Notes under the pieces: model-generated
Told to the model about the DNA's origin: nothing
Seen by the model: only the letters and a program-made list of their open reading frames with translations
Databases searched by the model: none
Program-made: the position numbers and the translations under genes
Source of the DNA: Nemertoderma westbladi
Lineage: Eukaryota; Animalia; Xenacoelomorpha
Direction of reading: 5' to 3'
Assembly (NCBI GenBank): GCA_032718475.1
Contig: JAUCBJ010007223.1
Span: 1 to 64,000 of the forward strand
DNA length: 64,000 bases
Shown: positions 4,824-50,476 of the stretch, one piece after another
Position numbering within the stretch: the first letter of the stretch is position 1
How the letters are laid out: every line of letters starts with the position of its first letter

Positions 4824-6194
4824 GTTTAGCTATACAGTTGAATGTCTACTACTATAGTTTCAGTTAAAGCAAGTCTGGTAATTCAGTATGACCGCAAGCC
4901 TAGCGATTTATTACCGATACCGTTACTCGGTGTAACATGATATATATACAATATATTAGAATGCCGGTATGCTTATAATATATATAAGTATTATTACAGA
5001 CTAGATTTGTCACAGAGTACCGGTATATAATTTTAGCACAAATATATATAAATATATAATAGGCCTATAGTGAATACCGGTATACAGCTTACACTTATAG
5101 TATATATAAATATAATTATGAACTAGAATTAATTACAGAATACCGGTATGATTTCAGCTCAAATTTATAGAAATAAATATAATAAGCCTATGGTAAGTAC
5201 CGGTATGTCAATTATTTTTAGAATAATTAAATTTCTGAATATTCTAAGGTTACTTGGTTACTTTAACTTACTTTATTACCGTTATTTAAGCAGTAGTTCA
5301 ACTGATATTGAGACCTAGTTGTTGTATGGCAGGCCTACTATTTATAAATCGTTTGAGTTGATTTATAATAGATATATACCCGTTTAAAAGGGGTTTTGTC
5401 AATATTTGAAATAAATGTTATTATTTCTGGGGGAGTCACTACACAGAAGCTGTACGCTCTCAGTGAAGTGTTACTTATTGAGACACTAAAACTGATAATT
5501 CTAATTTACTTAAGTTACTTAATACTACAAATTACTTACGATACGGGTGAGATTAATTCTCTAATTAAACACAACAAAAATATTACGTACAAAATTTTTA
5601 GGGTAATTTTACAGGAAGTCTACAAACCAGCCTAACAAAGGGTTAGAATTCTGGTTATTACAACGGACAGGGTACTACGGTATTTGAAATAATAAGTAGT
5701 AGTAAATATATTGCACTGTCCAGATAGGAAAATACCACCGCCTGACGACCTATAACCGTATCGCTATAGGTACTACGTTATGTATCACGGAGTGTTCCTA
5801 CCCAGAAGTTAATAGAGCTAACGAATGTGCCTATCAACCACTTTACAACACAAATATACTGCCTACACACTAATTACTCTCGGAAGCACTGTACGCTAAA
5901 CCCTAAATTAGGTACAAGTACTGGTACAACAAATAATCAGTAGTTAAATATACTTGAACAGTTAAAAGAACCACGGCATCTGCTGGAGTGACCAGAGCAC
6001 AAAGTCACCAGTCTTGTCCTACGCCAAGCAGCCCGTGTAGTACCGGGGTTAATTTAACTATAACGGTATGTATAACAAGCACAATTACTGTAGGGATAAA
6101 CTTGGGGACATGAATGTTGCGAATAATCGCATAAACTCTGAATAATAAATATTACGCTACCCGTACAGAATACTCAAACAAAATACAAACCAAA

Positions 6195-6715
6195 CGCTGG
6201 CAGACTACCACCAAGCCTAAATAAACTACCGTACGTGTAGCTTCTGAAATGGTTAGTTAGTATGCGTTCTAACACGGTAGTACGACTTATTCTTTAAGAG
6301 GGGATTGACCTTACAGCATATGGCTGCCCCAACTTACTAACGGCACTTTATCAGACAAACTCCACACATACAGCAATCTCTTCAGACCTAATAATAGCTA
6401 GACAACAATCCAGCCTACAAAATATCTGAGTAATAACTATTACGGTACCTGAACAGACCACACAAACAAACACAGGCTAAAACACTGGCAGACTACGATC
6501 AAGCCTAAATAAACTACAGTATATGCAGATTCTGAAATAGTTAGTTAGTATGCGTTCTAACACGGTAGTACGACTTATTCTTTAAGAGGGGATTGACCTT
6601 ACAGCATATGGCTGCCCCAACTTACTAACGGCACTTTATCAGACAAACTCTACACACGCCGTAATCTCTCTAAACCCAACAACAGTCAGACAGCAGCTCA
6701 GCCTACAATTATCTG
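6195..6715 (-). repeat. ~290-bp tandem duplication in the copy 1 leader
   Basis: CTGGCAGACTAC...TTATCAGACAAACTC occurs at ~6197 and ~6485 with a ~110-bp identical core. Confidence 0.85.
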
Positions 6716-7071
6716 AACAATCTGAGCAGGGTCACACGCCTTCTGCTCAATATTAGCCTACTAGTAAATAAAACCGACAGAAATAAGTAGAATCTCAATA
6801 AAAATTCAGGGCTGCAGTCCCTGATTAAGTACTAAGACCTACCGGTATACACTAATCAAATTCGAATAATACTAATGTACTGATACAGCAGTACCGGTTA
6901 GGACAGTTGGGCCTACAGACCTACAGAAGTACCGGTTCTGGCAGTTGGACCTACGGACCTACAGCAGTACCGGTTCTGGCAGTTGGGCCTACTGACCTAC
7001 AGAAGTACCGGTTCAGGTTTACCGGTCACTACGGTATTTTGCAACCTTATTGCTTACTGCAATAAGATCGT

Positions 7072-7081
7072 TAACTGTTAT
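7072..7081 (-). promoter_or_regulatory. Non-tRNA primer-binding site candidate of copy 1 (ATAACAGTTA)
   Basis: Directly follows the LTR end on the minus strand and is the perfect complement of LTR-internal 7846..7855. Confidence 0.6.
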
Positions 7082-8300
7082 TGTTCGCGCTTTTGAAGAC
7101 CTTTAGCAGTTTAACCTGCCAAAATTTATATGTCTTTTAGTTAATTAAAACACCTTTAGCATACGACAATATTTTATGCTAATAAACAAAACATTAGCCG
7201 AAGTCAGCCCATGCGCGATTATTCACCCGATGGCTACGCCCGGGAGGCTGAATTCGGATGCTTAAATTTTATTATTGCAGTGTAAGGTTGCAGTGTAAAT
7301 CTACTGTATTATTCAATTGATCACTAATATATAATTTCTGACAGATATTATTAGCTTTCGGGAAATATTAACAGTTCCTTTAGGACGTGGCGCTCTATCT
7401 ATTTAAACAGAACTAGGACTTATACTAAACGCAACGATACTGCTTATGATTAAAGTATAAGGCGCATTCTTTAGGAAATGCTTTGTTACCAATCACAATC
7501 ATGCACACTATTCTGCCGACCGTCAGTAAATTTGATCACACATAAAGAGAGCAGCAATTGACTCATGTAGGGTCTGCTAAATAACATTAGATTCAATACA
7601 CGCCACATTGATATAAAATCGCAATTGTTATGTATAGCCTGTCTCTCTAACCTGTAGTGTATCAAGAAAATTGGGAATTTTGGGTGATTTATCCGTATTC
7701 TCCAAAGAGCAATATTTCCTCAATAAATCGATACAATTAATAACTGACGGTAAATAACAGTACAAACAATATAATTAATAAGTAAAGTTCGGAAGAATAA
7801 TATGATTATTAGTGAGTTAGTTAGGTAGGTAGGTAGGTAGGTAGGATAACAGTTATACTTTCGATAATTTAAGCAGTTTTACTAGAGTTCTTCCCAAAAG
7901 CCGGTGTTATGGCGAAAAATGGGAACACAACAACAGAATCATATGAAGAATCATATGACTAGATGACTATACGAGGATACCAACTACCCTTATTCCCCGA
8001 AGCTCCCGTCCAACACAGAGGATGAGCATACAGATAGGAAATTCAGTTCAGTAGCTCTGGGATAGGTCAAAATCAACGCCCACTCAAATTCTATTGGCCG
8101 ATACGGACAGCAGGGCTGAGGCAACCTCCCTAAGCTGGTTGGCCGATTAAACGGAGCCCAGATACCTTCGTACAGCACATCAGCCAATAAGCTGGTAGCT
8201 TGCACTATTTTGCTATAGATCCCTTTTAGAGTATTCTAGCGACCGGGGGGGAACTGGCCAGCAAGGCAAACGAATCAGTTATCCCACAAAAGCTTTTACA
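7082..8300 (-). repeat. 5' LTR of copy 1 (1219 bp)
   Basis: TGT...ACA termini shared with copy 2; the 3' part is homologous to 12570..13331; length matches the 1220-bp 3' LTR of copy 2. Confidence 0.8.
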
Positions 8301-8320
8301 GCTCAATTACAAGACGTGCG

Positions 8321-8339
8321 TGACGTCACTGTGACGTCA
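8321..8339. promoter_or_regulatory. Two tandem palindromic CRE/ATF-type motifs (TGACGTCA)
   Basis: TGACGTCA at 8321 and 8332, 20 bp outside the copy 1 LTR; motif match only. Confidence 0.25.
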
Positions 8340-9304
8340 CTGTACTCACGGTGAAAGCAAAGTCCATCAAATATGAGATGGCTCTGTTCAAGTGTCAAGT
8401 TAGGGGGATGGGGGTGGGGTGGTGTTGGGGGGGGGGGGATGAGCAATGAGACACCTCCAATGTTATATAGTGCATTGTACTTGGCATAATGAACCCAGTG
8501 AACTATTCTTGTTGAACAGTTAGAGCCCAGCGTCTAGTAGGTCTACATAAAAGTGGAAAATATTGATGGAGTTCCACCACTTCCCTGATTCTGATAATCG
8601 AAGCCACATACGGTAAGTAGCACATTTGTTACAGTTACATTTTGGCATCTAGCGGTTGATAAATAAAATATAAACATTAAACAAATTACAATAGAATAGG
8701 TTACAGTTTTATTTTTGAGAGTAATCAGCTGTTATTTGCGTCAAATTTCCCCTGGAGAGGGATTAATTTTTATTGCGTCCAGTTTTATTGCTCCCTCTCT
8801 GAGTCATTTAGTTATTTTATGAGTTATTTGTCCACGGGGAGTTAACGAAACCCTCTGCTAAAAAAAAAGGCTGATAAATAATGTCATAAGGATATAATGA
8901 GATTTACAAGAGTCTCAATTGTCAAACACTGTAAAATAATATATGCGCTGAACCATAAAGAAAATAATAATTAATATTTAGGGTTTGTTGATAATTACTT
9001 AAAGACAGCGAACCTGCTAATTTTAAATTATTGCTTATACAAAATGGTGTCATTGCGTTACGGGTACTGTCGCGCTACGGCTAATTATCGCGTTACGGCT
9101 ATACTGTCTTGGTTTTACATAAGGAATCATTATCAATATTATTCTATGGTAAATATAAATTAATACTTTTCAATTGTGCTTATTTCTTTTGATTATTTTA
9201 GTATAATAATTAAAAATATATATATAATATTCTATGGTGTTTACGTACAGATGAGCTGCGAATAATTTAATGTAATAATGTTTTACAGCATGGGGGGGGG
9301 GGGG

Positions 9305-12300
9305 TGTAAAAGCTTTTGCGGAATTGCCCGGTTATTTTTCCTTATTTTTCCCGTAAAATACTCTGTAGTTGGTTTAGTAGGCGTAAGAGGCCGTATTATT
9401 GCTGTATCGGTGTTTTTTAGAGGACCTAAGAGCTATTTCTTCCCTATGTGCACTTTGGAAGACATGGTTGGTGATTCTATGGCAATTCTATGACGCAAAA
9501 GGGGCTAGACGGTCAGGGCCCTAAACCGATTAGGTTCTCTGTTCGCAGAACACCGAACACTATTCCGGCCACGGAACTAGTCCAGCAGAATGCCTTTATA
9601 GAATCCTGGGATTTGTGGGACGAGAGGATCTCAGCAACTAAGCGAAAACGAACAATAGGATGTTCCTAGACCCCCCCCCCCCAAAATTTATCTAGAAGAC
9701 TTTTTCCCATATACATTACGTTTCAAAAGTCTACGGTTCTCCGGCTAGGGCCAATTTGAGTCAAAAAGTCAGCCTCCCTAGCAACCTCGTTGCTATGGAG
9801 ATAAGTCCAGAACCGCTAATGCTACGGACTTGGGACCGGCGCCAAACTGTAGGCAGCATATGGGTTTACCTTCACAGAGCTTTTTTTTGGAGCGATCAGA
9901 TCATGATCTTGACCATGATCAGCAAAGATCAGTTTTGATCAGCAATCGGACACTCAAGGCTTGCTCCAATCGAAAAACTTAACATTACAAAAAGATTCAG
10001 CGACCCCACATTAGTCATGATTCCCGTTAAAAGATTTTAAAAAAAGTGAATTCTTACTGGTCAAAACGCAAGATCATGATCGCGCAAAGATCGGACTTCG
10101 TAAAATCGTAACTAAGCATTTTGGATATAAACAATTACTGTAGGAAACGTTCAGAACACCGCCTTGAGTCGATTAAAAAAAAAATTGGCTCAATCGGACA
10201 ACCGGTTCTCGAGATCTGATACCTGATCATTAAAGATCATATTTTTCGGTTTTTTCCAATTTTCTCGAAAACTTTGTTTGAGACCCCCGATTTTTTTTTT
10301 ACGAATCGACTTCTATGGTGAAGGGGCAACTTTTAAGCATTTCGAAATTTTCAAAAAGCGATTTGATCAGGCCGCGATCAGAAAAGATCGTGTTTTTGGT
10401 TTTATTTCGAAGACCAAGTCCTGGGAGTTCACCGTATGGAAAAACTTAACATCACAAAAAGATTCCTCACCCTCGAATTATGGGGGGTAGCCAAAATTTG
10501 GGCATAAAAAAGTTCAAGTCTAGTGGGTCAAAACTCAAGATCATGATCGCGAAAAGATCAGTGTACTTAAAATCGAATCTAAACATTTTTTTAATAAACA
10601 TTTATTGTAAGAAATGTTCAATGGTCTATTCTGAGTTGATTAAAAAAAAAATTGGCTCGATCGGTCAACCGGTTCTCGAGATCTGATACCTGATCATTAA
10701 AGATCATATTTTTCGGTTTTTTCCAATTTTCTCGAAAACTTTGTTTGAGACCCCCGATTTTTTTTTTACTAATCGACTTCTATTAAGAAGGGGCAACTTT
10801 TAAGCATTTCGAAATTTTCAAAAAGCGATTTGATCAGGCCATGATCAGGAAAGATCGTGTTTTCGGTTTTATTTCGAAGACCAAGTCCTGTGAGTTCACC
10901 GTATGAAAAAACTTAACATTACAAAAAGATTCCTCACCCTCGAATTAGGGGGGGTAGCCAAAATTTGACCATAAAAAAGTTCAATTCTAGGGGGTCAAAA
11001 GATCATGATCGCGAAATGATCATTTTTTCGAAATTACTTCTGAGCATTTTGGAGCAAAACTGTCAAATTAAAAAACATTCACTGGAGTGTTCTAAGTAGA
11101 TTAAAAAAAATTTCGACTCAATAGGCCAACCGGTACCGGAGATATGGTCGTCCAAAGTCTGCTTCCGGTAATTCGAAAATATTTCGAAAACCCTTGATCG
11201 AATTTTTTCCTTGAAAATATGTGAATGTACAGTTAGTGGACCCGCATCTAACGATATATCACAATCCATATTTCAGATGACAGGTACCGGTGAAATCAGA
11301 CTTTACCGAAAAAAATTTAAATTTTTGCTACTCATGTCTGACTATCTCGAAAACTATAATAGGTATGGAAATACTTTCACTGCAAGAAATGTTCGCCTAT
11401 CCAATGCGCTTCTAACTCTGTGCTCGGATTTTGCATAGTGTCAAAACCTACAACTTAACCCCCCCAGCGGAGGGAACGGAGTGACCGGAGCGCCAGTACT
11501 ATCTTTCATTATTATGAAGTAATAAGGGCGGTGGGTGGGGTAGGTGGTGAACACTATTTATAGGGTGGAGGGAGGGTCTAGTATATTACTTTAGGATATT
11601 TGATTTCTTTGCAATATAGTTTAGCTGCCTCAGTCTTATTTGTAATATGTTATACATTATACCAAATTATATCAAGTTTTAACATACTACATTGTCTACC
11701 TGTAGGAGAAATATACAATGTAGGGCTCATAATATATTTATAAATAGATTTAGTATATTTACATTGTATAACAGAGTTAATTGATACTATTACGGTATTA
11801 TACTAAAGACGCCGCTTTGATATATCTAATCAAATGGCAATTTCTTGTATATTATCTATTTCCCTATCTTGGGTATATCATTCAATTTCTAAAACTATAA
11901 TAATAAACATTTACTTCACTTCTTGTTTACTCGCATGGATATATTGATATAAAACACTTCAGTATAATATGTTATAGGGCCGAACGCAGATTAATCGGAA
12001 TAATATGTTTAATTATTATTACAATTGGCACATTGATGTAAGTAGTACATGAGTTTGATAAAATAATTATGAATCTGTATCTTATTCTACTTTGTCTATA
12101 TGATTATGTTATATAATAATGTTACTTTATCACTTTGGTTTAAACCGATCTCCTTTACTATTACTTACTACTTATACTACTACTACTACTACTATTACTA
12201 CTACTGCTACTGACTACTACAGAGTTATATATTATAAGAGGACGGGGTTCGTGATTATTAGTTATTATACAAGTGCCCCTCGGCTATAGAGAGTCCACCC

Positions 12301-13331
12301 TCGGTTGCTTACTGGATACTCTTGAACAGTAGTTACTATGACGACGGTTAACAGCTGATATTCATACGTGTCGATTTTCTTTGTTCTACGGCTTCTCTTA
12401 GTTCAGTCAACCAATCAGAGCGTTTTTACGGCTCTTGTACAGAAATTTCCGAGAAATCACGCAATGCATTATGGGCAGTGTTATCATTCTGTCCTGAGCC
12501 AGGAAGAACGGCTTTGGAATATTTTGTGCTGTTCTGCTTTTAGCCTAACACTAGTAGGCTTAATTATAAGGACATATATCCGTTATCTGTGCAACTCAAT
12601 ACTTACCTACTAACCTAACTCAACTGGGCAATGCATATATCTTGTTGTACATACTTTTATATTGTTATACTGCTATTTACTGTCGATTATTCATTATATG
12701 GTGATGAAATATTATATTGGAATAACGAGAAATAACCCCGAAAACCCAATATTCTTGATATACCGAAGGTAAGAGAGACAGGTTACATATAACGATTGTG
12801 ACTTATGTTAAAGTGGTTTGAAGTGAATCTAATGTTATCTGATAGACCCTACATGAGTCGGTCTGTGTTCCTTTTATATGTGACTAAAATCAGTGAAGAT
12901 CGGCAGATCAGTGTGCAGTATTGTGCAGCATTGTGTATGAGTGAGACTGATAACGAAGCATTTCCTAAAGAATGCGCCATATATGTGAATTGTAACTAAG
13001 CCATATCGTTGCGTGTAGTTTAAGTCATAACTCTGTTTATATAGATAGAGCGCCACGTCCTAAAGGAACTGCTAATATTCCCCGAAGGTGAATAATATTG
13101 TCAGAGATTATATAACACGATCAGTCGAATAATACAGTAGGCTTACATAGCAATACGATTAAGCCGTCGAACCCAATCTCCCGGGTATATCCAGCGGGTG
13201 AATGATCGCGCACGGATTGGTTTCAACTAGTGTAGTGAATCAAATACTTGTCAGAGGCTAAAAGCGATTTATTATCTAGAAGACATCCTAATTTGGCGGG
13301 TTAAACTGCCAAAGGTCTGAAAGCGCGAACA
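9305..13331 (+). repeat. 5' LTR of copy 2, interrupted by a 2807-bp segment (9510..12316)
   Basis: Matches the 3' LTR on both sides of the extra segment; the junction shows 2-bp GA microhomology. Confidence 0.85.
9650..11525. mobile_element. Non-coding repeat element, possibly Helentron/HINE (DINE-1)-like, with an internal ~467-bp tandem repeat
   Basis: GGTTCTCGAGATCTGATACCTGATC recurs at 10204 and 10671, with a diverged third unit upstream. A short hairpin (TTCAT-TATT-ATGAA) followed by GTAATAA lies at the right end. The left boundary is uncertain. Confidence 0.35.
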
Positions 13332-13346
13332 ATAACGGATATATGT
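13332..13346 (+). promoter_or_regulatory. Non-tRNA primer-binding site candidate of copy 2 (ATAACGGATATATGT)
   Basis: Directly follows the LTR end, with no TGG. Perfect 15-nt complement of LTR 12572..12586 (also 28721..28735); partial duplicate at 13402..13412. Confidence 0.65.
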
Positions 13347-13522
13347 GTCTGTATTGCAGTGTAGGCATTAAATACAGTTTAATATTGTTCTGGTAAGAAC
13401 AATAACGGATATCGCTTCTGTATTGCAGTAGGCAATAAAGCTGAAGTACCGGCAACCGGTACCCAGTAGGCCTGACTACCTAACCACCCGGACCGGTACC
13501 TACAGCAGTACAGGTACAGCAG

Positions 13523-14388
13523 TAGGGTTCGATCGGTGCCAAAATTTTGCCGGTGCCGGTGCCGGTGCCGGTGTCACATTGTAAATGCCGGTGCAGGTGC
13601 CGGTGCCGGTGTTTTTAAATGTTGGGCAAATTTGGCGTAATTCTATTTGAAAACGAAATAATATAAATTTTTGTGTAATCTATGTCTATTACATTAGGCC
13701 ACACGCACACCTAACCCTGTCACCTAATGAAATGCAGAAATGAGGCAGTGATGCAGTAAAGTACCACAGTCACAGATTGACAGAAGGTACAGTACAGCAG
13801 TAGCTCAGTAGCTGGCCGACTATGTACTGATCAATTTCTGAATTAATATTGAAATAGCTTAACCCAGCTGTCCAGCACACGGGTACAGCAGCAGAGCAAC
13901 AATAAGTACGTACAATTCTACAATACTGTAAAATTATGATGTCACGCATTTATATAAAATGGTTTAGATTTACAATAAAATGAATATAAAAGTTTAAATA
14001 AAACGATTGCATTAAAATTATTTGTGTAGGCCTACAGTTACAGTAGGCCTACAGTATTTATATATTACATAAAATACAGAAATAACATAGTGTATCAGTT
14101 TTACACTAAGTAAGGCGTTATGATTCTGGGCTACCCTACCACTAGTCAAGTCACTAGACTGCTAGACCAGTAGACAGACAGTCAAACAGCTATAGCCAGA
14201 TAGCCTTGCTGCCTTGTAGCTGACTGATAGCTTAGCCAGGCTGTCTGCAGTACCGGTACTGCAGTAGGCTTCAATTTTAACAGCAGCCAATCATTTTAAA
14301 AAACACCGGCACCGGCAATGTTTTTGCCGGTGCAGGTGCCGGTGCCGGTGGTGCCAAACACCGGTGCCGGTGCACCGATCGAACCCTA
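13523..14388. mobile_element. hAT-type MITE (866 bp)
   Basis: 17-bp TIRs TAGGGTTCGATCGGTGC/GCACCGATCGAACCCTA; 8-bp TSD TACAGCAG (13515..13522, 14389..14396); subterminal GCCGGT repeats; absent from copy 1. Confidence 0.92.
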
Positions 14389-14561
14389 TACAGCAGTATT
14401 ATTCGATTTTGATTATTATATACCAGTAGGTCTTAATAATTAATCGGGGACGCCTGGTTTTTATTGGGATTTTACTTAGGCCTATTTCTGTCAGTTTTAT
14501 TTATTTGTAGGCCAGTATTGAACAGAAGGCGTGTAAGCCTGATCAGATTGTACAGACAATT

Positions 14562-15120
14562 TGTAGGCTGGGCTGTTGTCTGATTGTTGTTAAGTCTGAA
14601 CGGATTGCAGTGTGTGTAGATCATCTGTCCGATAAAGAACGGTTAGGAAGTAGGGGCAGCCAATAGCTGTAAGGTAAACCCCCATCTAAAGAATAAGTCG
14701 TACTACTGGGTTAGAACGCATACTACCTAACCATTTCGGAGTCTGCATGTCCTGTAGTTTATTTAGGCTTGAGAGTAGTCTGCCATCGTCTAGTCTGTAC
14801 TTTGTTTGTGTAGTCTGTACAGGTAGCGTATAATATTTATTTAGATAATTTGTAGGCTGGATAGTTGTCTGGCTGTTATTGGGTCTGAAGGGATTGTAGT
14901 GTGTGTAGAGTGTCTGTTCGATAAAGTGCGGTTAGGAAGTAGGGGCAGCCAAAGCTGTAAGGTAAATCCCTTCCTAAAGAATAAGTCGTACTACTAGGTT
15001 AGAACGCATACTAACTAACTATTTCGGAATCTGCACATACTGTAATTTATTTAGGCTTGATAGTAGTCTGTCAGTATTTAGTCTGCATTTTGTTTGAGTG
15101 GTTTGTACGCGTAGCGTAAT
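14562..15120 (+). repeat. ~290-bp tandem duplication in the copy 2 leader
   Basis: TGTAGGCTGG...GGTTAGGAAGTAGGGGCAGCC...TTTAGGCTTGA occurs twice; homologous to 6195..6715. Confidence 0.85.
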
Positions 15121-16460
15121 ATTTATTATTCAGAGTTTATGCGATTATTCGCAACATTCATATCCCCAAGTTTGTTCCTACAGTAATTGTGTTTGTTATA
15201 TATACCGCTATAGTTAAATTAACCCCGGTACTACACGGGCTGCTTGGCGTAGGTAAAGACTGGTAATTTTGTGCACCGGTCACTCCAGCAGATGCCGTGG
15301 TTCTTTTAGCTGTTCAAGTATTTTTAACTACTGATTATCTGTTGTACAAGTACTCGTACCTAATTTAGGGTTTAGTGTACAGTGCTTTCCGAAAGTAATT
15401 AGTGTAGGCATTATATTTGTGTTGTAAAGTGGTTGATAGGCACGTACGTTAGCTCTATTAACTTCTAGGTAGGAACACTCCGTGATACATAACGTAGTAC
15501 CTATAGCGATACGGCTATAGGTCGTCAGGCGGTGGTATTTTCCTATCTGGACAACGCAGTGTATTTACTACTACTTATTATTTTCAAATACCGTAGTACC
15601 CTGTCCGTTGTAATAACCAGATTTCTAACCCTTTGTTAGGCTGGTTTGTAGACTTCTTGTAAAATTACCCTAAAAATTCGTATTTGTGTTTTTTTGTAAA
15701 TTTTTGTGTTTATTTAGAGATTGAAATCTCACCCGAATTGTACGTAATTTGTAGTATTAAGTAACTTAGGTAAATTAGAATTATTTGTTTTAGTGTCTAA
15801 CAAGTAGCACTTCACTGAGAGCGCACAGCTTCTGTGTAGTGACTCCTTCCCAGAAATAATAACATTTATTTCAAATACTGACAAAACCCATTAAACGGGT
15901 ATATATATATTATAAATCAAATCTAACGATTTATAAATAGTAGGCCTACCATACAACCATTAGGTCTCAATATCAGTTGGACTACTGCTCAAATAACAGT
16001 AATAAAGTAAGTAAAGTAACCAAGTAACCCTAAAATTCAGAAATTCAATTATTTAAAATAATTGATATACCGGTATTTACGATAGGCCTATTATCTTTAT
16101 TTCTATAAATTTAGGCTGAAATTATACCGGTACTGTAATTAATTCTAGTCCAGAATTATACTTATATATACTACAAAACAAACTGTAAGCTGTATACCGG
16201 TATTCCCGATAGGCCTATTATATATTTATATATATTTGTGCTAAAAATTATACCAGTATTCTGTGATAAACCTAGTCTGTAATAATACTTATATAGTTAT
16301 ATATACTATAAGCATACCGGTATTCTAATATATTATATATATATCACGCTACACTGAGTAGCAGTATCGGTAATTAATTACTAGGCTAGCAGTTAATACT
16401 GAATTACTAGACTTGCTTAGACTGTAATATAGCAGTAGGCATTCAACTGTGTAAACAAAC

Positions 16461-18602
16461 ATGTCTGATACTAAACAGAACCTGTCAGACAGTTTATTAG
16501 ATGTAACTATCTGCGACTCAGATAGGAGTGTAGAACCGTCTGGACCTAAATTCAGTTCACCTCCTACTGTGAGGAAGGTCATCCCTCCTGTAGTAATATC
16601 AGACCCTAGGCTAATCCAACACCGTAGGTCTATCATAGGCACTCGAGCTCAGGTCAAGCGGGACCAAGAAGCAGCGGAACAACAACAACCCGCGAGCCAA
16701 GAACTTATTTCTCAACGGCCCGACAGCTCCAGTAGTGAGGATACTGTAGAGCTGACACCCGAGCGCGGGGCAAAGATGACGGATGCGGTTTATTCGGATC
16801 CCCTTCTCATCCTTCCTGCAGCCGTACTCATTAGGTTATTGATTGCGGTGGAAGAACACCAGATCGATTGGGCGAGAAGTAAGCGATCGACTAAAGATAG
16901 TTATGCGGGATACACAAGGGAAGAACTGAAGTCTATTGTCGAGTCGCAATGGAACTTCCCCGGACCCGGACTCCAGTTTGATTTATCAGAAGCTGTCTGG
17001 GAAGATATACACAGGATGGGAGTACCCAAGGAAACCATCGATCCAGCTGTGTGGAAGAGGTCCGCAGCCGGATACGTACAGGGATTCTTCAGCTCCATGG
17101 AGCGAGTAGAAAAACAACTGTTTCAACAACCACAAGGACCTCAAGAGCAGGGACAGCTGCTTTATCAAGTTAGAGAAAGAATTCTACGAATCAGGCTAAT
17201 CTTATCGGCCTTTGAGGAGGCTTCTAAAAGAAAACAAGACACGTTGTTGCAAGTTGCCGTAAAGACTTGGTTTCAACGGGTGAGTCTCCAAGTTCAAAGA
17301 GCTGCCCCGTGGAAATCGCAGTTAGATGAGCGCTCAACACTTGGAGAATCCACAGACGCTACCTTTTCCCAAGTGGAAAGTGAAGCGACAGCAGAGAAGC
17401 CGCATAAGAGGGATGCCATTGACATCTATCTGTCAGACTATCAACGTTTTTTAGGAGATGAAGAGTTGAGGAGAAGGTTAGATGGACTTAGCCCTAATAG
17501 TGAAGGAGCCAAGCTTGTGTTGGACGCAATCGATGTGGATAGGATAGCTGCGAACCAAGCTAAATTTGATGAACAACTCCGCATCGCTAGAGTCCAAGAA
17601 GAACAAGTCAAGAAAAAACGAATAGAAGACAGAAAGATAGCGGCCTTGGCAGCTGCAGTGGCAGAAGCAGAAAGAAAAGCGGCTTTGGCAGCTGCAGTGG
17701 CAGAAGCAGAACGAAAGGCGTCTGAAGAGACTGCCCAACTAGAGTTAGAAAATCTTCAAGAGAGGCAAGATAACTTTAATAAACAGTTAACAGCTAGTAA
17801 TATGCAGATGATGAATCGATCTACTCCCAAAAGACAGGGATATACATCATCTGAGGAAGGCGATACCACCGATGCTGAAGGCGGGGGAAATAGATCTCAT
17901 CTAAGCAGACGTAAAAGAACATCCCACCGTCAGAAATTGCCTGATTTGCCTCCAGCTGTTAGAAGGCAACTAAATAACACCAACTTAGGTAGTACAGAAC
18001 CCACAGACCAAATAATTAAAATAGAAAGACTCCCTACTATAGTAGATGAGCCTGAAATAATTAGGCCTGTTCTTGAAATCACCCCTTCAGTGATAGACAC
18101 ACCTGTGCTCCCTGAAGCTACCTCTAAATTCCCTCTGCACAGCACTAAGCTACCTGTGCCCAGTAGAACAGCCCATGAGACAGTGCAGGTCCTGGACCCT
18201 GAGCGAAATATTCATGATTTGTCGCCCGTTGTCCCTCGTCCGCCCGCTACAACGTTGGCGACTCCCGCTTCGGCGGTCGAATGGGTGGACGAGAGACGGC
18301 GGGGGATGGATCTCCTGCTCGGGCAGATGCAGGAGACTGTTCAGCAATTCAAGGGCACAGTAAGGGAAAGTAGGCTAGAGTTGCAAGAAGTGCAGCAAAG
18401 TATCGCGCTAGAACGCGATAAATTAGTAAATACACAAAGGGGTATACCACCACCCTCGGTAACAATGTGTCAACCTGTTAGGTCTGAAGTATCTCATGCG
18501 CAAGGTATGGAGCCTACACGCATATATACTGCTAGCAAAGTAGAAACTCCTATAGTGAACCCTATTAAGGGTAATTATAGACCTGTTGATAATGACATTC
18601 CC
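16461..18602 (+). pseudogene. N-terminal part of the copy 2 Gag ORF, interrupted by a LINE
   Basis: Homologous to the copy 1 N-terminus. Removing 18604..22482 plus one CCCT restores ...NDIPYRPD... in frame with 22486..24999. Confidence 0.9.
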
Positions 18603-18709
18603 TTCAATTTGAATTTCCCACTATTGACAAGATTTAGGGCCTACACCCAGCACTGACATACAGACATACACGGGTTCATTTATTATTAATTGACAATTAT
18701 TACTGTATT

Positions 18710-21700
18710 ATGGCACTACTCGTGGTAATGGCGGTTCTCGTTATGGTTGGTCGATTGCTGGCGGCAGATGTAATTCCTGTGAGAAAGGATCCGGTGAGCC
18801 TTCAACCAATTCCCGTATTGGATGTCTTCACAGTGTTCCAAATCAACGGAGAATATCGTGGCTGGCGACTACCAACTGTGGCGGATCTCTGGACAATGAA
18901 CGGTGTGAGTCTCTTTGCTCGAAGTAGGAGGAATGCTGGTCCAGTGAGATTTAGTGGGTGGACTTCCCAACTCTGCGCGTTGATTCTTGCTGGAGATGTC
19001 GAGGTAAATCCAGGGCCTAGCAGGACGATGAAGAAGACCTGTGCGATATGTAAACACGGAGCAAACTCGCGAAGCAAGATCGTTGAGTGCGAGAAATGTG
19101 TAACCTTTTCCCATGCCAAGTGCTACCGTAGGTCTTTAAATAAATATTCCACCCTCAGAAACAGTAACAGCCCAATTTATTTTTGTAACAGTTGTATTCT
19201 ATCTGAACTCCCATTTTTTGAAGATTCCTTAGATAACGAACTTGACGAACCTATCGCCTCACCCTTGCAACAACCAAGTGAGGCCGAGGGTGATACCTTC
19301 CAATATTTTAAGAGAAAAGGCTTACATTTTCTACATCTAAACGTGCGATCTTTGCTTCCAAAAATATCGGAACTTAAAATTCTATCAGTTAAAACGAACG
19401 CCGCAATAATCACAATTTCCGAAACATGGCTGGATGATACTGTTTCTGAGGAGGTGAGGTACACATTAATAACTATGTAATTGTACGCAAGGATAGGAAT
19501 AGGGATGGAGGCGGGGTGTGTATGTACATCAGGAATGACTTAGCTTTTAATCGTAGAGAAGAATTAGAGACTTGCGATGAGATTTTACTGCTCGAACTTT
19601 TACTACCAAAAACTAAACCAATTATTATCGCTAGCGTTTACAGGCCGCCAAAACAAGATAATTTTTTAGAAAATCTAGAAAATAAAATCTTAGTGAATCT
19701 TAGGTCTGACTGTGAATTTTATTTATTAGGAGATTTTAATATTTGTTTTCATCAAAAAGCCTCAGCTATTTGTAGAAAATATCAAAGTGTTCTGAATTTA
19801 TTTGGTTTAAAACAATTAATAAGTGAATCAACTAGAATTACAAGTAAAACTTCCACCCTATTAGATCATATTGTTATTAATAATAGAGATATGGTATCTC
19901 AGTCTGGTGTTTTATCTATAGGTGTAAGTGATCACTTTATTGTTTTTTGTACAAGGAAATCTCAAAAGTATTTTTTTGGGGAACATAATACTGTCAAAAT
20001 TAGGTCTTTAAAGAACTACAGTAAGCAACAATTTATAAATATTTTAACTAACTCCAACTGGGAACCATGTTTTAAGGCAGCTAATATTAACCTTGCTTAT
20101 GCAATTTTTAAAAATTTATTTTTGAACGCTCTTGATTCTGTAGCACCCATTAAAGAAGTTCACTTAAAACAAAGAACAGAACCGTGGATGACTGCTAATA
20201 TTCTTAAGGTTATAAAGGATAGGGATTGCTTATTGTATAGATTTAGAAAATATGGTATTTTAACTGATTATAATAATTACTGTAGGTTAAGGAACTTAGT
20301 ACAGCGTGAAATTAAAAAAGCGAAATCCGAATTTTTGTACAACAAAATTGATGAAAATAAGGATAATCCAAAATCACTTTGGACGACATTAAAATCTTTA
20401 GGGTATAAAAGCACAAATTCAAAATCGAATATAGTCTTGCAGGAAAACGGGGAGCTCATTCATGAGCCTAAGATTATAAGTAATTTATTCAATAACTATT
20501 TCATTAATGTAGCCTCGAATCTTGTCCAAAAATTGCCAATTGCTAAAAATAAATACAGTCTAAATTCGGAAATACTAAACAAATTTTACTCGGAAAAGGT
20601 TAAGAATTCTCCAAAGTTATTTTTACAGCCTGTCTCAGAAGCTTATGTATTGAAAAATCTTGTCAGTATTTCGTCATCTAAAAGTACTGGACTGGACCAG
20701 ATTCCAGCAAGGTTTCTTAAGGATGGTGCGGAAGTGCTAAAGATTCCTATTACTTACATAATTAACTACTCAATTTTAGAAAATGTAGTCCCGGATGATC
20801 TTAAATTGGCGAAGGTTGTTCCAATATTTAAAAAGAACAGTAAATTAGAAACCAGTAATTACAGGCCCATTAGTGTGTTAAGTATTGTATCCAAAATTCT
20901 TGAACGTTCAGTGTACACTCAGCTAGAGTTCCATCTTAACAAACTCAATTTAATATACGAATTTCAATCTGGCTTCCGTAAATCTTACTCTACAGATAGT
21001 TGTCTAATCAATTTGACGGATAATATTAGGTGTAACAACGCGAAGGGATTGTATACCGGTATGGTAATGTTAGATTTACAGAAGGCCTTTGACACGGTTG
21101 ATCACGAAATATTACTAGGAAAACTAGATCTTATGGGTGTGGGCTCAATTAATTGGTTCAGGTCATACTTATCAGATAGGGGTCAAGTTGTAGATATAAA
21201 TAAAACTCAGTCCTCAGTTCAGAAAATTAAGTGTGGAGTACCGCAGGGTAGCATCTTAGGGCCGTTGCTGTTTGTATGTTACGTAAATGATATGATTAGT
21301 AGCATAGATCCGGACTTTAAACTAATATTATACGCTGATGATAGTGCATTAATCTTTTCTCACAGGGACCCGGACACAATTTGTGAAAAACTAGGCAAAG
21401 TTCTAGAATCCTGCAACGAATGGCTCATCGATAATAAGCTTTCAATTCACTACGGCAAAACTGAAAATATTTTATTCGGCTCGAAAAGAAAATTAAACAA
21501 GTTCCGAAACTTTGAAGTAATTAGCAACGGCCACAAAATTGAAAATAAAAAAGAAGTTAAATATTTAGGCTCCAAATTGGATTGTAGTTTATCCGGAGAA
21601 AGCATTGTTAAAAATATTATTGCAAAAGTTAATGGCAGACTAAAGTTTCTTTATCGACATAAAAATAGCCTAAATTTTAATTCTCGTAGGTTGCTTTCTT

Positions 21701-22188
21701 CATCTTTAATTCAATGTCATATTGACTATGCAAGTTCATCTTGGTATGAAGGCTTAACTAAAAATCTCAAAAATAGGTTACAAACAGCTCAAAACAAGGT
21801 AGTACGTTTTATTAATGATTATAAACCACGTCACCATTTAACCCCTGAAGATTTTAATCAGTCTGGTTTAATTAAAGTAGACAGTAGAGTAAAGCAGCTT
21901 CGGCTCAACCATGTACATAAAGTTTTCAATGATAACTGCCCTAAATACTTAAATCAAAAATTTACCAAACTGAGTGATACACATTCATACGGCACCAGAG
22001 CCAGCACATCAAATTTTTATGTTCCCAATTGTATATCCTTTGAAAGCGAAACGTTTTTCTTTAATGGAATAAAGAATGGGAATTCCTTACCGAATAACAT
22101 TAAAAATATTAAAAATGAACATGCCTTTAAGTCTGCAGTAAAATCCCATCTCCAAGACCAGTGCAAATTCTTATATAGCAGTATTTAG
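18710..22188 (+). pseudogene. LINE polyprotein: signal-like leader, 2A peptide, PHD finger, AP endonuclease and reverse transcriptase; one frameshift near 19455
   Basis: LILAGDVEVNPGP; CAIC...CEKC...HAKC...CNSC; FLHLNVRSL, ISETWL, RKDR...GGGV, GDFN, SDH; YRPIS, DLQKAFD, GVPQGSILGP, YADD. The two track ORFs (18710..19480, 19516..22188) join across GAGGTGAGGT. Confidence 0.9.
18974..19018 (+). other. 2A-like ribosomal skipping motif (CALILAGDVEVNPG/P)
   Basis: Matches the D(V/I)ExNPGP consensus with the usual upstream hydrophobic run. Confidence 0.85.
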
Positions 22189-22332
22189 TTTAGTTCAATA
22201 TTAAATAGGTGCATGTGCAATAATTAGTAATAATGTTCAATTTTGTATTTCTTGTATCTTATTTAGTTTAAATTATATAATTATTCTATATACAGTAGTT
22301 AGTTTAGTTTGTATTGGTAACCAAGTAACTTG

Positions 22333-22378
22333 AAGGACCCCCTTGGAAATAAGCTGCAAAGCTTTAGGGGTTATCCTT
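22333..22378 (+). promoter_or_regulatory. LINE 3' UTR stem-loop
   Basis: AAGGA-CCCCT...AAGC-TGCAAA-GCTT...AGGGG-TTA-TCCTT nested inverted repeats ~100 nt before the tail, as expected for RT-recognition stems of CR1/L2-group elements. Confidence 0.5.
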
Positions 22379-22485
22379 TATGTTATGTTGGACAATACTT
22401 ACTATACATTAATAATTTTACTGAGTTAATGTATTGGTTTCTATTGTTTGCATAATATATAAATAAATCTATCTATCTATAACCC

Positions 22486-24999
22486 TATAGACCTGATCAT
22501 AATCCGAGAAATTTATATACCGATAACTCGATATTAAATAACACGATGGCCCAAGAAAGTTTTACGCGTCAAATGGCTAGAACCGAAGCCCGGCAAGCGG
22601 TAAAGGTGGGAGAGATCGTCAAGTTCAATGGAGATGAGATGAAATGGTTACCTTTTAATGAATATTATAAAGATAACATTCAGAACTCTGTACTATCTAA
22701 TGGAGAGAAACTTAGATTCCTCATCGAGTGCTTGGAAGGATCTCCCAAGTTAATGGCGTTAAAGTTTATTGGACATCCAGACGGATTAAGACAAGTTTGG
22801 GATATACTAAACATCAGGTATGGTAATAAGACTAACATAGCTAGGTATTTATATGCGAAATTAATGGCGCCCCGAAAGTTTCTTAGCAGCGGGATTATAG
22901 AATTTTCCAATGAGATTCAGGAGATCTGTAGACAGCTAGATTGGTTAGGTAAGTCTCATGAATACCAGAACTCTATGGTTGTAGGAGCCTTAGCATCTAC
23001 TTTACCAAAGGGTGGAGTAGGTACACGCTGGGACAAGAAGGTGTTATATATGATGGAACAGCAACAACGAGACCCTACCATGGCTGATCTCATGTCATTC
23101 CTAGATGGAGAAGTGAAATTACAGCTCCTAAAACAGTCTAGAGAGAAGACACCGGAAAACAAGGTAAGTGAGAAACCCGTTTCTAGGAGAAAGGTAATAC
23201 CAGTTTGTTATACAGACGACGGCGAAAGCCAGGCTTCTCAAGAGGAAGACAGCGGAAAAGACACTGAAAGATCTTACTATGACAATAAAATGCCTAAAGA
23301 CCAGGTAAGTAAATCCAAGTCTCGACCCAATGACAGAAGAGAACCGGTAAGAAAAACCCCTCCTACGTCTCCCAAGAGAATTCATGTAAGAAAGCCCGAG
23401 GAAAGAACAAGTGTGCACCACACAGCACAGGTTAAAGTAAGTAACATCAAACCCAAATGTGTGCTGTGCGACGGGCCCCACCGCTTGAATATGTGCGATG
23501 AATTCTTAAAGAAATCATTAAAAGAGAGACGGGAAGTCATGTGGGATAAGCGGTTGTGTTATAATTGCCTCAGACGAGGACACCAACGGCGAACCTGTTA
23601 CTCCGACGCAAGGTGTGCAAAGTGCGGCGCAAAACATCATATCTTGTTGCACACGGAATTCGAACGAAACAGCCCGAGTCAGGTAAGTGAGTCCGAACTA
23701 CATGTCCAATTCAGTGATGTGAACGACACTGATCAATCTGAGATGGAAGGATTCTATACGGATGAGTTCTCCGACGAAAACGAATCCTGTTACCTGACAA
23801 ATACCGCAGTGTATCGAGCACTCATGTATGAGAAAGACACAGACAGCGACCTCACCCTAACTACTTCAGATCAACAACAATCTTGGAAAGCGCCAACTTC
23901 AAATGTAGGAATCCGAGAATTTCCTGTAGTCCAGTTACGGGTCCACGGACCTCAGAAGAGCTATATAGTGAACGCCCTCCTGGACTCCGGTAGCACAGGA
24001 ACATTCATCGATAAAGAACTAGCCGAAGTCATCTTTGCTGGACAACCCAAGTTCCGAACCAAGCTAAACATGTCAGGGATCATGCAGGTTTGGAATTCTA
24101 CTGTAGCTGCCGACTATTATATAGGTGAGTTGTCCACTCCACAGGATAAACTAGGAGAATACAGTATAAGGTCAGTAAAAATGGTGGCAATAAAGAACTT
24201 CGCTACCACCCAAGTGGAACCTTATAATTGGGACGAAGATGATCATGTCCAACAACTTAACATCCCTAGATTCGACACCGATTATCCTGGAGTACAAATA
24301 TTAATCGGTCAAAACGCGCATGAGGCGCTGGAGACATTAGAGAAACGACCTACTCAACCGCAACCACTTCAGACCTATGCGGTAAGAACTAGAGTAGGTT
24401 GGTACCTTACTGGACCTTCCCGTAGAACGCTCAGGGAAAGACTGCTTCAAGATCGCGTCTGCCAGGTGAGTGAATGGGAAGACGATACTAGTGAGGGAGA
24501 CGACCCAACTGAGGGAACACCACACTCCTCAGATAATGACAATCTTAACTCCAATGTAGATCAATGGAGATATTGCCCCAAGACGATGAATATAACTGAC
24601 ATCGCTTCCAGAGGAGCAACTCCTCAAGAACTGACAGATACTACAGACCGGTTAGGTGAACCCGACTTCCTGAGTAAGGAGGATGAATGGCCTCCCCATC
24701 TTACTCCGACTGAGATTAGACCAGCCAAGGGAGCGGAGAAAGTCAAACCTAAAACCCGGACGGGTGGATCGGAGTTATTTGAACCCGGGATAGATCTGTC
24801 GGTATTACATATTGCCAGGGACGACGCCGTGGATCTGGACCTCCCCACCGCGAGTGGATCCTTCATGAAGATCAGAGAGAGCGATTGGAGCTCTGGAACA
24901 TCAGACGTCTCGCAGGGACTCTTACCTCTCCTGCAGGGAGCGACGGACCACTATAGCTCCTGGAATCGGCTTTGTAAGGCCGTCGTGTACTTAGAGTGA
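22486..24999 (+). pseudogene. C-terminal part of the copy 2 ORF: Gag core, zinc knuckles and aspartic protease, fused in frame to the RNase H tail
   Basis: CVLCDGPH/CYNCLRRGH/CAKCGAKHH and ALLDSGSTGTFI are present. The sequence diverges from copy 1 at ~24541 and continues QWRYCPKTMNITDIASRG...EPDFL..WP (BEL/Pao RNase H end). No RT motifs. An integrase-terminal-like HPVGRLCLP remnant lies at ~25070. Confidence 0.85.
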
Positions 25000-25741
25000 T
25001 GTTTTTATCGTCACTATTCCAGGACGAAGAGGAATCCTGGAATTGTATTCGGGATGCAGCGACTCAATCACCCAGTCGGTCGTTTGTGTTTACCGGAAGG
25101 GAATGGAGGACTCTCCGGAAACTGTGGAAGGCAAGATTCTCTTCCCACGACCACCTCCCTAATCCTTCAAACATCTAGGGACTCCATAATGTAACAACAT
25201 ATGGAGTGGGTGTGTGACTATATTATTTTATATTTATTTTTATTATTTTATATTATGTATGTATTATTATGTAATTTTATTATAATCGTTTTCTTTAATT
25301 TCATTTAGTAGAATGTTATTTTAGCGATTATTTATTAGATTAGTGCAATATATATTCGCGTTTATTACTTAATTACGTATATATTATATTTAGTGCGACG
25401 GCGAGAAATAATTCTTTTCCTCCTTCCTTACTGTCCGTATTACATTACAAATACGTAACTACAGTAAGATGACATATCCGTACTTATTAAAGTACAATAA
25501 AGCCACTACTATATTCAAGTATTATTGGTAGGCAGAGTATTAGGAATGCAAAGTTCAGATCCTCGTGTCTCGGCTAAACCAAGCTCTGGGTAGACCTTGG
25601 AAACGACTTGCCTCTTCACACTGACATTGCTTCGTGCGATATTGCTCTCATACCATATATTAAATAATACATATAGTAGCGTGATGTCCCTCTAACAGTA
25701 GCGTAAAACACACATAAATCTGTTAAACCTTTTGACCATCT

Positions 25742-26025
25742 GTAATTCTAGTCGATTAAGATATCGCGGCACCCACCGATATACTTGAAAGACAAAATTC
25801 TAGAATCAGTGGTTAACGTCCCCAGACAAGTTCTGGAATAAATCGGTGCCCATCTCAAATATTAATTATTTAATATTTGCAAATCTAATAAATCAAAATC
25901 TGTAAAATTCAGATCCTTCAACAATTCTAGTCAATTAAGATATCGTAGCATTTACCGATATTCTTAAAAAGACAATTTTCATAGAATTAAGGATCTTGTG
26001 TCCCCAGACATGTTCTAGAATCAAA
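25742..26025 (+). repeat. Diverged ~180-bp-period duplication in the copy 2 3' region
   Basis: AATTCTAGTC(G/A)ATTAAGATATCG...TCCCCAGACA at ~25744 and ~25923. Confidence 0.6.
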
Positions 26026-26872
26026 ATATGTCAATTTAATTATCAAATAATAAAATTTCAGGGAATAAATTTAAATTCATGTCTTTTAATGAATTTAATA
26101 AATTGCCATTTTTACGCAATTTATAACATTCCCAAAATTCCATTAATTAATAGATCAAGGGAGCGGAGATTTATCTTATTATGCGTATGAGTGTGCGAAA
26201 GTCTCCCAAACATAGTCAATAGCCGATAAAATTCATAAAGCCATGTATAAAACAGGACATTGACCATTAAAGAATTACTATTAAATAACATCCCAGATCT
26301 GTATGCATTGGAATTACCCTAATTCTACCGCTAGCTTTGCATAATGTCACCATAGCAACAACCACGCTAGAATTAGAATTGAATTAAAAGAACAATAGAC
26401 AGCTTGTCCCATTGAATAGCATAGGAAATAAATAGCGCACTGCTAGTATCCAAGGATACATGATAATAACGTGACATTCTGGAAGGCACTGACTAACGGA
26501 CAAGTGACCCGAGTGTGTGTAATTTGTGACAAATTGTGTGTGTGGTATTTGTGAGTTTATAGGCGAATGTTACTACTAAGGTGTGTTTACAGTAGCGAGT
26601 CGCAATTGTGAAAGTAACCCTAACTCTCCAGTAAGAACCTGAGGTGTATCTAAGCCTTTGGGACGGACAGTCGAGTGACTTGTGCCGGTTGTCGTTGTCG
26701 TTGTGCGGCTACGTCGTTGGCGAAAGTACAGCGGCGACGACACATCGGCGCTGAGGATCTCGCACTGTCCGGGGGCTGATTGGGGTAGGCAGCGACGCTC
26801 GCTAGCCTAAATATAAACTCATTATAATATTAATAAACTCATATATAGCAGATATGACGGAGTTGATAGAAG

Positions 26873-28182: not shown

Positions 28183-28260
28183 CTGTTTAGAGTATCTTTA
28201 TGTTTTAGAAACTGTGATTTTTATATTTTATAGACTGAAAATCCCATTTTCTGGGAGCGG

Positions 28261-29480
28261 TGTAAAAGCTTTTGCGGAATTGCCCGGTTATTTTTCCTTA
28301 TTTTTCCCGTAAAATACTCTGTAGTTGGTTTAGTAGGCGTAGGAGGCCGTATTATTGCTGTATCGGTGTTTTTTAGAGGACCTAAGAGCTATTTCTTCCG
28401 TATGTGTACTTTGGAAGACATGGTTGGTGATTCTATGGCAATTCTATGACGCAAAAGGGGCTAGATACTCTTGAACAGTAGTTACTATGACGACGGTTAA
28501 CAGCTGATATTCATACGTGTCGATTTTCTTTGTTCTACGGCTTCTCTTAGTTCAGTCAACCAATCAGAGCGTTTTTACGGCTCTTGTACAGAAATTTCCG
28601 AGAAATCACGCAATGCATTATGGGCAGTGTTATCATTCTGTCCTGAGCCAGGAAGAACGGCTTTGGAATATTTTGTGCTGTTCTGCTTTTAGCCTAACAC
28701 TAGTAGGCTTAATTATAAGGACATATATCCGTTATCTGTGCAACTCAATACTTACCTACTAACCTAACTCAACTGGGCAATGCATATATCTTGTTGTACA
28801 TACTTTTATATTGTTATACTGCTATTTACTGTCGATTATTCATTATATGGTGATGAAATATTATATTGGAATAACGAGAAATAACCCCGAAAACCCAATA
28901 TTCTTGATATACCGAAGGTAAGAGAGACAGGTTACATATAACGATTGTGACTTATGTTAAAGTGGTTTGAAGTGAATCTAATGTTATCTGATAGACCCTA
29001 CATGAGTCGGTCTGTGTTCCTTTTATATGTGACTAAAATCAGTGAAGATCGGCAGATCAGTGTGCAGTATTGTGCAGCATTGTGTATGAGTGAGACTGAT
29101 AACGAAGCATTTCCTAAAGAATGCGCCATATATGTGAATTGTAACTAAGCCATATCGTTGCGTGTAGTTTAAGTCATAACTCTGTTTATATAGATAGAGC
29201 GCCACGTCCTAAAGGAACTGCTAATATTCCCCGAAGGTGAATAATATTGTCAGAGATTATATAACACGATCAGTCGAATAATACAGTAGGCTTACATAGC
29301 AATACGATTAAGCCGTCGAACCCAATCTCCCGGGTATATCCAGCGGGTGAATGATCGCGCACGGATTGGTTTCAACTAGTGTAGTGAATCAAATACTTGT
29401 CAGAGGCTAAAAGCGATTTATTATCTAGAAGACATCCTAATTTGGCGGGTTAAACTGCCAAAGGTCTGAAAGCGCGAACA
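28261..29480 (+). repeat. 3' LTR of copy 2 (1220 bp)
   Basis: TGTAAAAGC...GCGCGAACA, preceded by the PPT at 28253..28260 and followed by a G-run. Confidence 0.92.

Positions 29481-50439: not shown

Positions 50440-50476
<37 letters not shown>

Follow-up and report, generated by a model that had tools for sequence, protein, structure and literature searches.

A candidate self-primer in the long terminal repeats of a BEL/Pao retrotransposon from Nemertoderma westbladi

Two copies of a BEL/Pao element

The window analysed here, a stretch of 64,000 nt of Nemertoderma westbladi DNA (GCA_032718475.1, contig JAUCBJ010007223.1, positions 1 to 64,000, forward strand), contains two copies of one long terminal repeat (LTR) retrotransposon in opposite orientations, copy 1 on the minus and copy 2 on the plus strand (Table 1), for which priming of reverse transcription without a tRNA had been predicted. 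Judged from its sequence, the element belongs to BEL/Pao, as the original prediction had assigned it: DUF1759 is present in both copies, 29 homologues bear PF05380, PF03564 or PF18701, and Gag and protease are of the BEL/Pao type. LTRs of 1219 and 1220 nt, a polypurine tract (PPT) and G-runs on both flanks of copy 2 agree with the BEL/Pao pattern of TG...CA ends, a length of 0.2-1.2 kb, a PPT and a target-site duplication. According to their Pfam domains, the listed homologues belong to BEL/Pao and not to the Ty3/gypsy chromoviruses (Tf1/sushi lineage). The proteins of the two copies are 75-82% identical. As to the order of the pol domains, copy 1 leaves the window at the start of the reverse transcriptase (RT), and copy 2, which is complete at both ends with four differences between its 5' and 3' LTRs, is without most of pol, namely most of RT, RNase H and integrase. 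No close protein relative was found at E 1e-30 among 1.8 billion representatives, the best stretches showing 27-39% identity; protein scans of viral contigs gave no match, a prokaryote scan gave a single irrelevant match of 31 residues, and a conserved 22-nt LTR motif had no match in metagenome or viral contigs.

The LTR is about 1220 nt long, and the 5' LTR of copy 2 starts at 9305 and is split by an insertion. The LTR end could be fixed independently of any pairing: in copy 2 the 3' LTR ends with GCGCGAACA before a G-run, which also precedes the start of the 5' LTR at 9305, and the LTR of copy 1 shares the GCGCGAACA end. An extension of the LTR to a normal TGG-type primer-binding site (PBS), which the original prediction had named as a possible objection, was thus not seen.

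Table 1 Features of the two element copies in the window
Feature	Position	Strand	Remark
Copy 1 gag-protease-start of RT frame, 1609 aa	3..4829	-	DUF1759; leaves the window
Predicted hairpin of copy 1, directly 3' of the PBS	7042..7070	-	-14.3 kcal/mol
Copy 1 PBS position, the first 10 nt past the LTR	7072..7081	-	Exact complement of 7855..7846
Copy 1 5' LTR, 1219 nt, TGTAAAAG...GCGCGAACA	7082..8300	-	First 14 and last 12 bases same as copy 2 3' LTR
Copy 1 U5-terminal stem-loop, predicted	7096..7136	-	-12.9 kcal/mol
Only AATAAA in copy 1 LTR, candidate polyadenylation signal	7268..7273	-	LTR nt 1028; about 570 nt downstream of the site
Copy 1 LTR site, candidate self-primer	7846..7855	-	LTR nt 446-455; 764 nt to LTR end
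Copy 2 5' LTR, first 205 nt	9305..9509	+	G-run (target site) before start; 3 mismatches to 3' LTR
Unclassified insertion of about 2.8 kb in U3 of copy 2 5' LTR	9510..12311	.	Ends uncertain by a few bases
Copy 2 5' LTR, remaining 1020 nt	12312..13331	+	1 mismatch to 3' LTR
TATAA upstream of copy 2 site	12565..12569	+	LTR nt 454
Copy 2 LTR site, candidate self-primer	12572..12586	+	LTR nt 461-475; 745 nt to LTR end
Copy 2 U5-terminal stem-loop, predicted	13281..13318	+	-12.9 kcal/mol; same position as in copy 1
Copy 2 PBS position, 15 nt directly after the LTR	13332..13346	+	Exact complement of 12572-12586
Second PBS-like unit of copy 2	13402..13412	+	70 nt downstream of the first; 11-nt pairing to the site
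Copy 2 gag, 5' part	16455..18603	+
Long interspersed nuclear element (LINE) splitting copy 2 gag	18604..22482	+	PHD finger, endonuclease, RT
Copy 2 gag 3' part and protease	22483..24999	+	Followed by deletion of most RT, RNase H and integrase
PPT adjoining copy 2 3' LTR	28253..28260	+
Copy 2 3' LTR, 1220 nt, TGTAAAAG...GCGCGAACA	28261..29480	+	G-run after; fixes the LTR end

Complementarity and covariation at the LTR end

In both copies the bases that directly follow the 5' LTR are the exact reverse complement of a site inside the LTR (10 nt in copy 1 and 15 nt in copy 2, offset 0), as confirmed by checking the strings at their coordinates. Because the LTR is 1220 nt long and starts at 9305, the sites lie at LTR nt 446-455 and 461-475; they align as homologous between the copies, and the first post-LTR base pairs with nt 455 in copy 1 and with nt 475 in copy 2. 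With the LTR end confirmed by the 3' LTR of copy 2, the sequence agrees with the proposed geometry, in which the pairing would place the 3' end of the site at the U5 boundary. In both copies a C follows the paired stretch. As predicted, neither has a TGG-type PBS: the 80 nt that follow the LTR of copy 1 contain no TGG, and the first in copy 2 stands at +60. The International Committee on Taxonomy of Viruses (ICTV) describes Belpaoviridae as primed by host tRNA at an 18-nt PBS for tRNA-Arg or tRNA-Gly (PMC8742986), whereas no TGG occurs near the LTR end of either window copy. No tRNA gene was found in the window, and positions 6500-14500 did not match any Rfam family.

Between the copies, PBS positions 6 and 8 carry different letters, and so do precisely the positions of the site that pair with them. 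The two compensated differences described within the first ten PBS positions are thus real: complementarity is kept while the letters change, with two of two changes matched between the two copies. In a simulation, 942 of 400,000 random sets of 2 + 2 substitutions kept full pairing (0.24%). Crossed pairings of copy 1 with copy 2 extend over only 5 and 6 nt, and the cognate duplex energies are -10.2 and -18.7, compared to -8.3 and -4.5 for the crossed ones. A background from 33,700 window positions gave P = 0.005 for a complement of at least 10 nt within 1220 nt, and P = 0.0003 for at least 15 nt. Under a looser null, in which offsets of 0-6 and splice joins were allowed at 150 random positions, the 10 nt of copy 1 were reached at 11 of the 150 and the 15 nt of copy 2 at none.

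Copy 2 contains a second PBS-like unit, and its first unit pairs 4 nt past the 11-nt core. The stretch 13332-13401 is an extra 70-nt unit before the second one, ending in a hairpin of 6-7 bp in which GAACA is formed again. Template switching may have produced the unit, and a contig without these 70 nt between the two units exists. That contig comes from a comparison of 12312-13560 with assembled contigs only, from four runs of at most three samples, of which the best may share the source of the window. Matching contigs numbered 10,692, 2,291, 4,584 and 52 in the four runs, and the family is therefore abundant. Single contigs, one of them from a second organism, agree with the PBS over 11 or 12 bases before departing from it, and at position 13413 the base giving a 12th pair accounts for 57-65% of the depth in three runs (among the variants listed), suggesting that the copy-2-like core is 11-12 nt. 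The 15-nt match of the original prediction is thus exact in the window and looks copy-specific in its full length; the copying of a longer primer into the PBS could account for it. The contigs are too short to connect a PBS with the site of its own copy.

Position of the site within the LTR

Compared in 50-column windows, the LTRs of the two copies show 32-46% identity over nt 30-448, the background level, and 40-90%, mostly 50-90%, from nt 449 on, suggesting a U3/R-like boundary at the site. In the self-priming yeast Tosmo elements, a divergent U3 block ends 9 bp from the U3-R junction, according to the available part of PMC10085805. In copy 2 a TATAA word precedes the site by 7 nt, and in copy 1 such a word overlaps it (LTR nt 444); relative to the 3' end of the site, the two words are 10 nt out of register. 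The only AATAAA of copy 1 lies at nt 1028, so that a long distance separates the site from the likely 3' end of the RNA. No AATAAA was found upstream of the site in copy 2, and one weak AGTAAA at LTR nt 418 of copy 1 is absent from copy 2.

A primer assembled across a splice junction was considered for the window family and rejected, as the best junction match was 6-7 nt, compared to 10-15 nt for the unsplit site. In both copies a G-poor tract directly follows the site (12596-12615 and 7810-7846, minus strand of each element). In copy 2 it includes ATACTTACCT, which matches the splice-donor consensus perfectly on the antisense strand, and in copy 1 it has repeated donor-like AGGT units.

Predicted RNA folding

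In addition to the U5-terminal stem-loop, a hairpin is predicted directly 3' of the PBS in both copies. When the RNA was taken to start at the site with a 70-nt leader, the mean probability of the long-range pair was near 1, and in one folding set the pairing of copy 2 withstood the addition of 30-120 nt upstream. Global folding is unstable and is taken as neither support nor refutation. The original proposal of self-priming across a loop of about 750 nt stands in part: a primer from the element's own RNA is the best explanation of the observations, while the folds do not robustly favour the long-range pair.

Distant BEL/Pao relatives

A scan of metagenome contigs, with an alignment of four homologues as query, provided at least 398 BEL/Pao loci, the best 80 of which (L001-L080) were analysed. 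In long alignments they share about 20-30% identity with the window protein, and by their motifs they may be Suzu/Sinbad-like. The LTR end is fixed by two copies in 8 of the 80, and in 16 more only the LTR start is known. None of the eight has TGG in the first 8 nt after the LTR, and all eight pair over 11-15 nt, at an offset of 0-4, across a GT-AG intron of 76-175 nt in the LTR, with a GTAAG donor in seven; for each locus, such junction pairing was reached at 0-2 of 150 random positions. A(A/T)TAAA occurs 20-105 nt downstream of the junction in 8/8, not upstream, and in L017 one LTR carries the intron while the other is exactly without it. Among the 16 loci with only the LTR start known, a junction match was present in seven, six of them right after ACA; that of L050, which is not after ACA, was dropped. 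The other nine are without a junction match: L012, L014, L029 and L055 have an unsplit site, and in L009, L032, L037, L060 and L062 neither form was found.

A scan for unsplit sites covered the 59 loci with at least 500 nt upstream, 21 loci under 500 nt being left out; its filter (ACA, 0-5 nt, G/A-T start) was set after the matches were known, and Markov simulations served as the null. An unsplit 11-mer complement after ACA was found in 11 of the 59 loci versus 0-1 in any one of the 20 simulations. The ten that were inspected have loops of 140-328 nt; the base before the paired stretch is A in nine of them, a weak sign given the AT-rich background. The 24 loci with the signature form 20 families at 80%, and in 22 of the loci a C follows the paired stretch. 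Fourteen loci are intron-split (L001, L006, L007, L017, L018, L027, L040, L042, L048, L049, L052, L053, L058 and L075), with a GT-AG intron of 76-372 nt and an exon junction complementary to the PBS over 11-15 nt. The part of the match upstream of the donor is just 4-9 nt long, suggesting a tiny first exon or an internal primer.

The relatives are thus similar to the window element in having no TGG, an LTR complement of 11-15 nt and C after the paired stretch, behind which a C/A-rich tract is often found. They differ in that 14 need removal of an LTR intron, in a PBS offset of mostly 2-5 nt and in shorter loops. In a quick tree from gag to the start of RT (37 rows, with 14 left out for a short frame or a missing anchor motif), the window protein lies on a long branch between two BEL/Pao groups, outside the clade of the relatives, although this placement is uncertain. 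Extending the comparison to relatives, as the original prediction had proposed, therefore indicates that the signature is common in BEL/Pao, but provides no covariation within the window family.

Other features of the window

The insertion at 9510-12311 is non-coding. It holds a tandem repeat of 467 nt, a TAC microsatellite and numerous short inverted repeats, and none of its 25 longest pairs is a long terminal inverted repeat. Both copies have a leader of over 2 kb with a 288-nt tandem duplication (6137-6669 and 14554-15127). About 900 nt of the copy 2 leader are absent from copy 1 and have GCCGGT-rich bounds in opposite orientation (13548-13611 and 14100-14330); this segment is probably another small insertion. 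About 3 kb of copy 2, from the pol remnant to the PPT (25000-28250), hold short open frames only. The LINE at 18604-22482 has a first frame with a PHD finger and a 912-aa endonuclease-RT frame and, being inserted in copy 2 with these frames, is younger than it. A further non-LTR RT frame of 1219 aa at 46578-50237, presumably CRE-like, shows a C-terminal zinc-knuckle and restriction-like endonuclease pattern. The element ends in a 35-nt poly(A) at 50441-50475 within a 17-nt satellite (44718-46463 and 50475-51763), and it is possible that it is a satellite-targeting LINE. Two large satellite arrays consist of 102 copies of 39 nt and 399 copies of 26 nt (36917-40745 and 52064-62438).

Discussion

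It is likely that the minus-strand primer of the window element is its own RNA, in place of a host tRNA. This assessment combines two forms, a short 5' primer as in Tf1, which is about as likely as not, and a longer 5' fragment, which contributes the smaller part. By analogy with Tf1, transcription would start at the site or a few bases before it, and the 5' end of the RNA would fold over about 750 nt onto the PBS, with the last base of the site against the last base of U5. The RNA would then be cut just past the paired stretch, before the C, probably by the RNase H of the element, to provide a 3'-OH, from which RT would copy U5 and R and jump to the 3' R. Plus-strand synthesis would copy the primer back into the PBS and so keep the complementarity exact during family drift; with the primer copied back, the matched changes between the two copies would need no second mutation.

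The self-primer of Tf1 itself is reportedly not removed. Its mechanism is described in PMC7175516, PMC10085805, PMC4600332 and PMC5341516, all available in part, and the available text of PMC10085805 and PMC5341516 had no match for the ATAAC start of the Tf1 PBS that the original prediction named. According to the same partial sources, Tf1, Tf2, Tj1 and the Tf1/sushi group (Ty3/gypsy chromoviruses, Metaviridae) resemble the window copies in a PBS that adjoins the LTR, the absence of a tRNA site, an LTR complement of about 11 nt and a stem-loop at the U5 end. They belong to another superfamily, whereas the window element has a BEL/Pao Gag and protease and a loop of 745-764 nt, and the three-duplex 'pretzel' of Tf1 is not conserved in full in the window copies. 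On the features that can be read from the DNA, the window element would work like Tf1 but is not a member of the Tf1/sushi group. Self-priming has also been predicted, from like sequence evidence, for the TAR lineage including Houba/Osr-1 (Ty1/copia) and for the plant Tcn1 clade (PMC6317226, in its available part); these are plant elements of other superfamilies, to which the window case would add a third LTR superfamily. The fungal GalEa copia elements, which have a conserved hairpin site, are likewise without a tRNA PBS and have a quasi-palindrome after the LTR, but their partner lies outside the LTR and, in the available part of PMC5445492, the authors found no complement of the Tf1 type, whereas the window partner lies inside the LTR. 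With Belpaoviridae (Semotivirus), the window element shares LTRs of up to 1.2 kb, a single gag-pol frame, a PPT, a DUF1759 Gag and homologues with a Pao peptidase and DUF5641 (PMC8742986), and the same profile calls belpaovirid replication poorly understood. No report of BEL/Pao self-priming was found in the literature searched, consistent with the original prediction, which was not aware of one for Belpaoviridae, although subscription papers or annotations in Repbase and GyDB could pre-empt the novelty: the words primer, PBS, tRNA and self are absent from the text of the BEL/Pao survey PMC3118150, PBS, tRNA and priming are absent from that of the Sinbad paper PMC554778, and the available parts of PMC3601003, PMC8220671 and PMC7472051 make no mention of it.

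Several observations weigh against a self-primer. The site is quasi-palindromic, the PBS being also a direct match to it at 9/11 positions in copy 1 and 8/11 in copy 2, which weakens copy 1 taken alone, and under the looser null the match of copy 1 is by itself marginal (11/150). Covariation in the window family rests on two copies. In the folds, the pair probability of copy 1 fell to 0.22 or 0 once upstream sequence was added, and with a 150-nt leader it was 0-0.01 in copy 1 and 0-0.97 in copy 2. The R-to-U5 duplex beside the primer, needed by Tf1, is not conserved between the copies. No TATA was found at -30 of the site, and the position of TATAA could place the start about 30 nt downstream of it. 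The relatives are distant, the window protein lies outside their clade, their PBS is mostly 2-5 nt after the LTR compared to 0 in the window, and the window loop far exceeds the 140-328 nt of the unsplit relatives.

The second form of an own-RNA primer, a longer fragment that starts well upstream in the apparent U3 and pairs with the PBS through no more than its final 10-12 nt until it is cut, is unlikely. It would suit the relatives, whose paired stretch spans the junction so that the RNA begins at least 4-9 nt before the donor and maybe further up, and in copy 2 it would suit both the 4 nt that the first unit pairs beyond its core and the tolerance of the fold to upstream sequence. However, similarity between the copies begins only about 10-25 nt before the site, the predicted pairing of copy 1 is lost with upstream sequence, and the A before the paired stretch in 9/10 unsplit relatives is, weakly in view of their AT-rich background, start-site-like. 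Less probable again is that the site is a TATA-like core promoter in U3, with transcription starting downstream, another primer in use, and the pairing between the PBS and the 3' LTR circularising or packaging the RNA. The TATAA words at LTR nt 454 and 444 and the AT-rich, quasi-palindromic nature of the site agree with a promoter, but these words do not keep register with the 3' end of the site, and no alternative primer site is present in either copy. Moreover, the pairing lies at the exact LTR end in both copies and 0-5 nt off it in the 24 loci, which is primer-like and would be needless for a structural helix.

It is improbable, more so than the promoter, that a host tRNA half or another small RNA primes, the match in the LTR being secondary. 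Ty1/copia lineages with half-tRNA primers are known (PMC6317226, available in part), but the two PBS versions would each need a fragment of their own and a coincident match in their own LTR, and the PBS letters of the relatives track the LTR junction across 20 families. Very little likelihood is left for the 3' end of the RNA as primer, with the site as the polyadenylation cut: the AATAAA of copy 1, far downstream of the site, the absence of one upstream of the site in copy 2 and the downstream A(A/T)TAAA of all eight fixed-end relatives argue against it. We consider just as improbable chance, or a one-off inverted duplication without a role. The 10 nt of copy 1 are reached by 0.5% of window positions and by 11/150 under the looser null, and a local duplication does occur in the leader of copy 2; the 15 nt (P = 0.0003), the two matched changes (P = 0.0024), the exact position and the recurrence of the signature in distant families all argue against it.

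Taken beyond the window, self-priming may be widespread and so far unrecognised in Belpaoviridae, a proposal that we put slightly below even likelihood. It would occur in intron-split forms, in which host splicing builds the primer, and in unsplit ones, with the window lineage representing an unsplit form that acts over a loop of about 750 nt and rewrites its PBS in each round. The window copies give exact coordinates for the predicted start site and cut, and the primer of the relatives would often be assembled across an LTR intron. If true, this would explain why PBS finders based on tRNAs miss such elements, and self-priming, shown for Tf1 in Ty3/gypsy and predicted for one Ty1/copia lineage, would be found in each of the three LTR superfamilies. 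Much of the third would then be independent of host tRNA, and these elements would lie outside silencing by tRNA 3' fragments.

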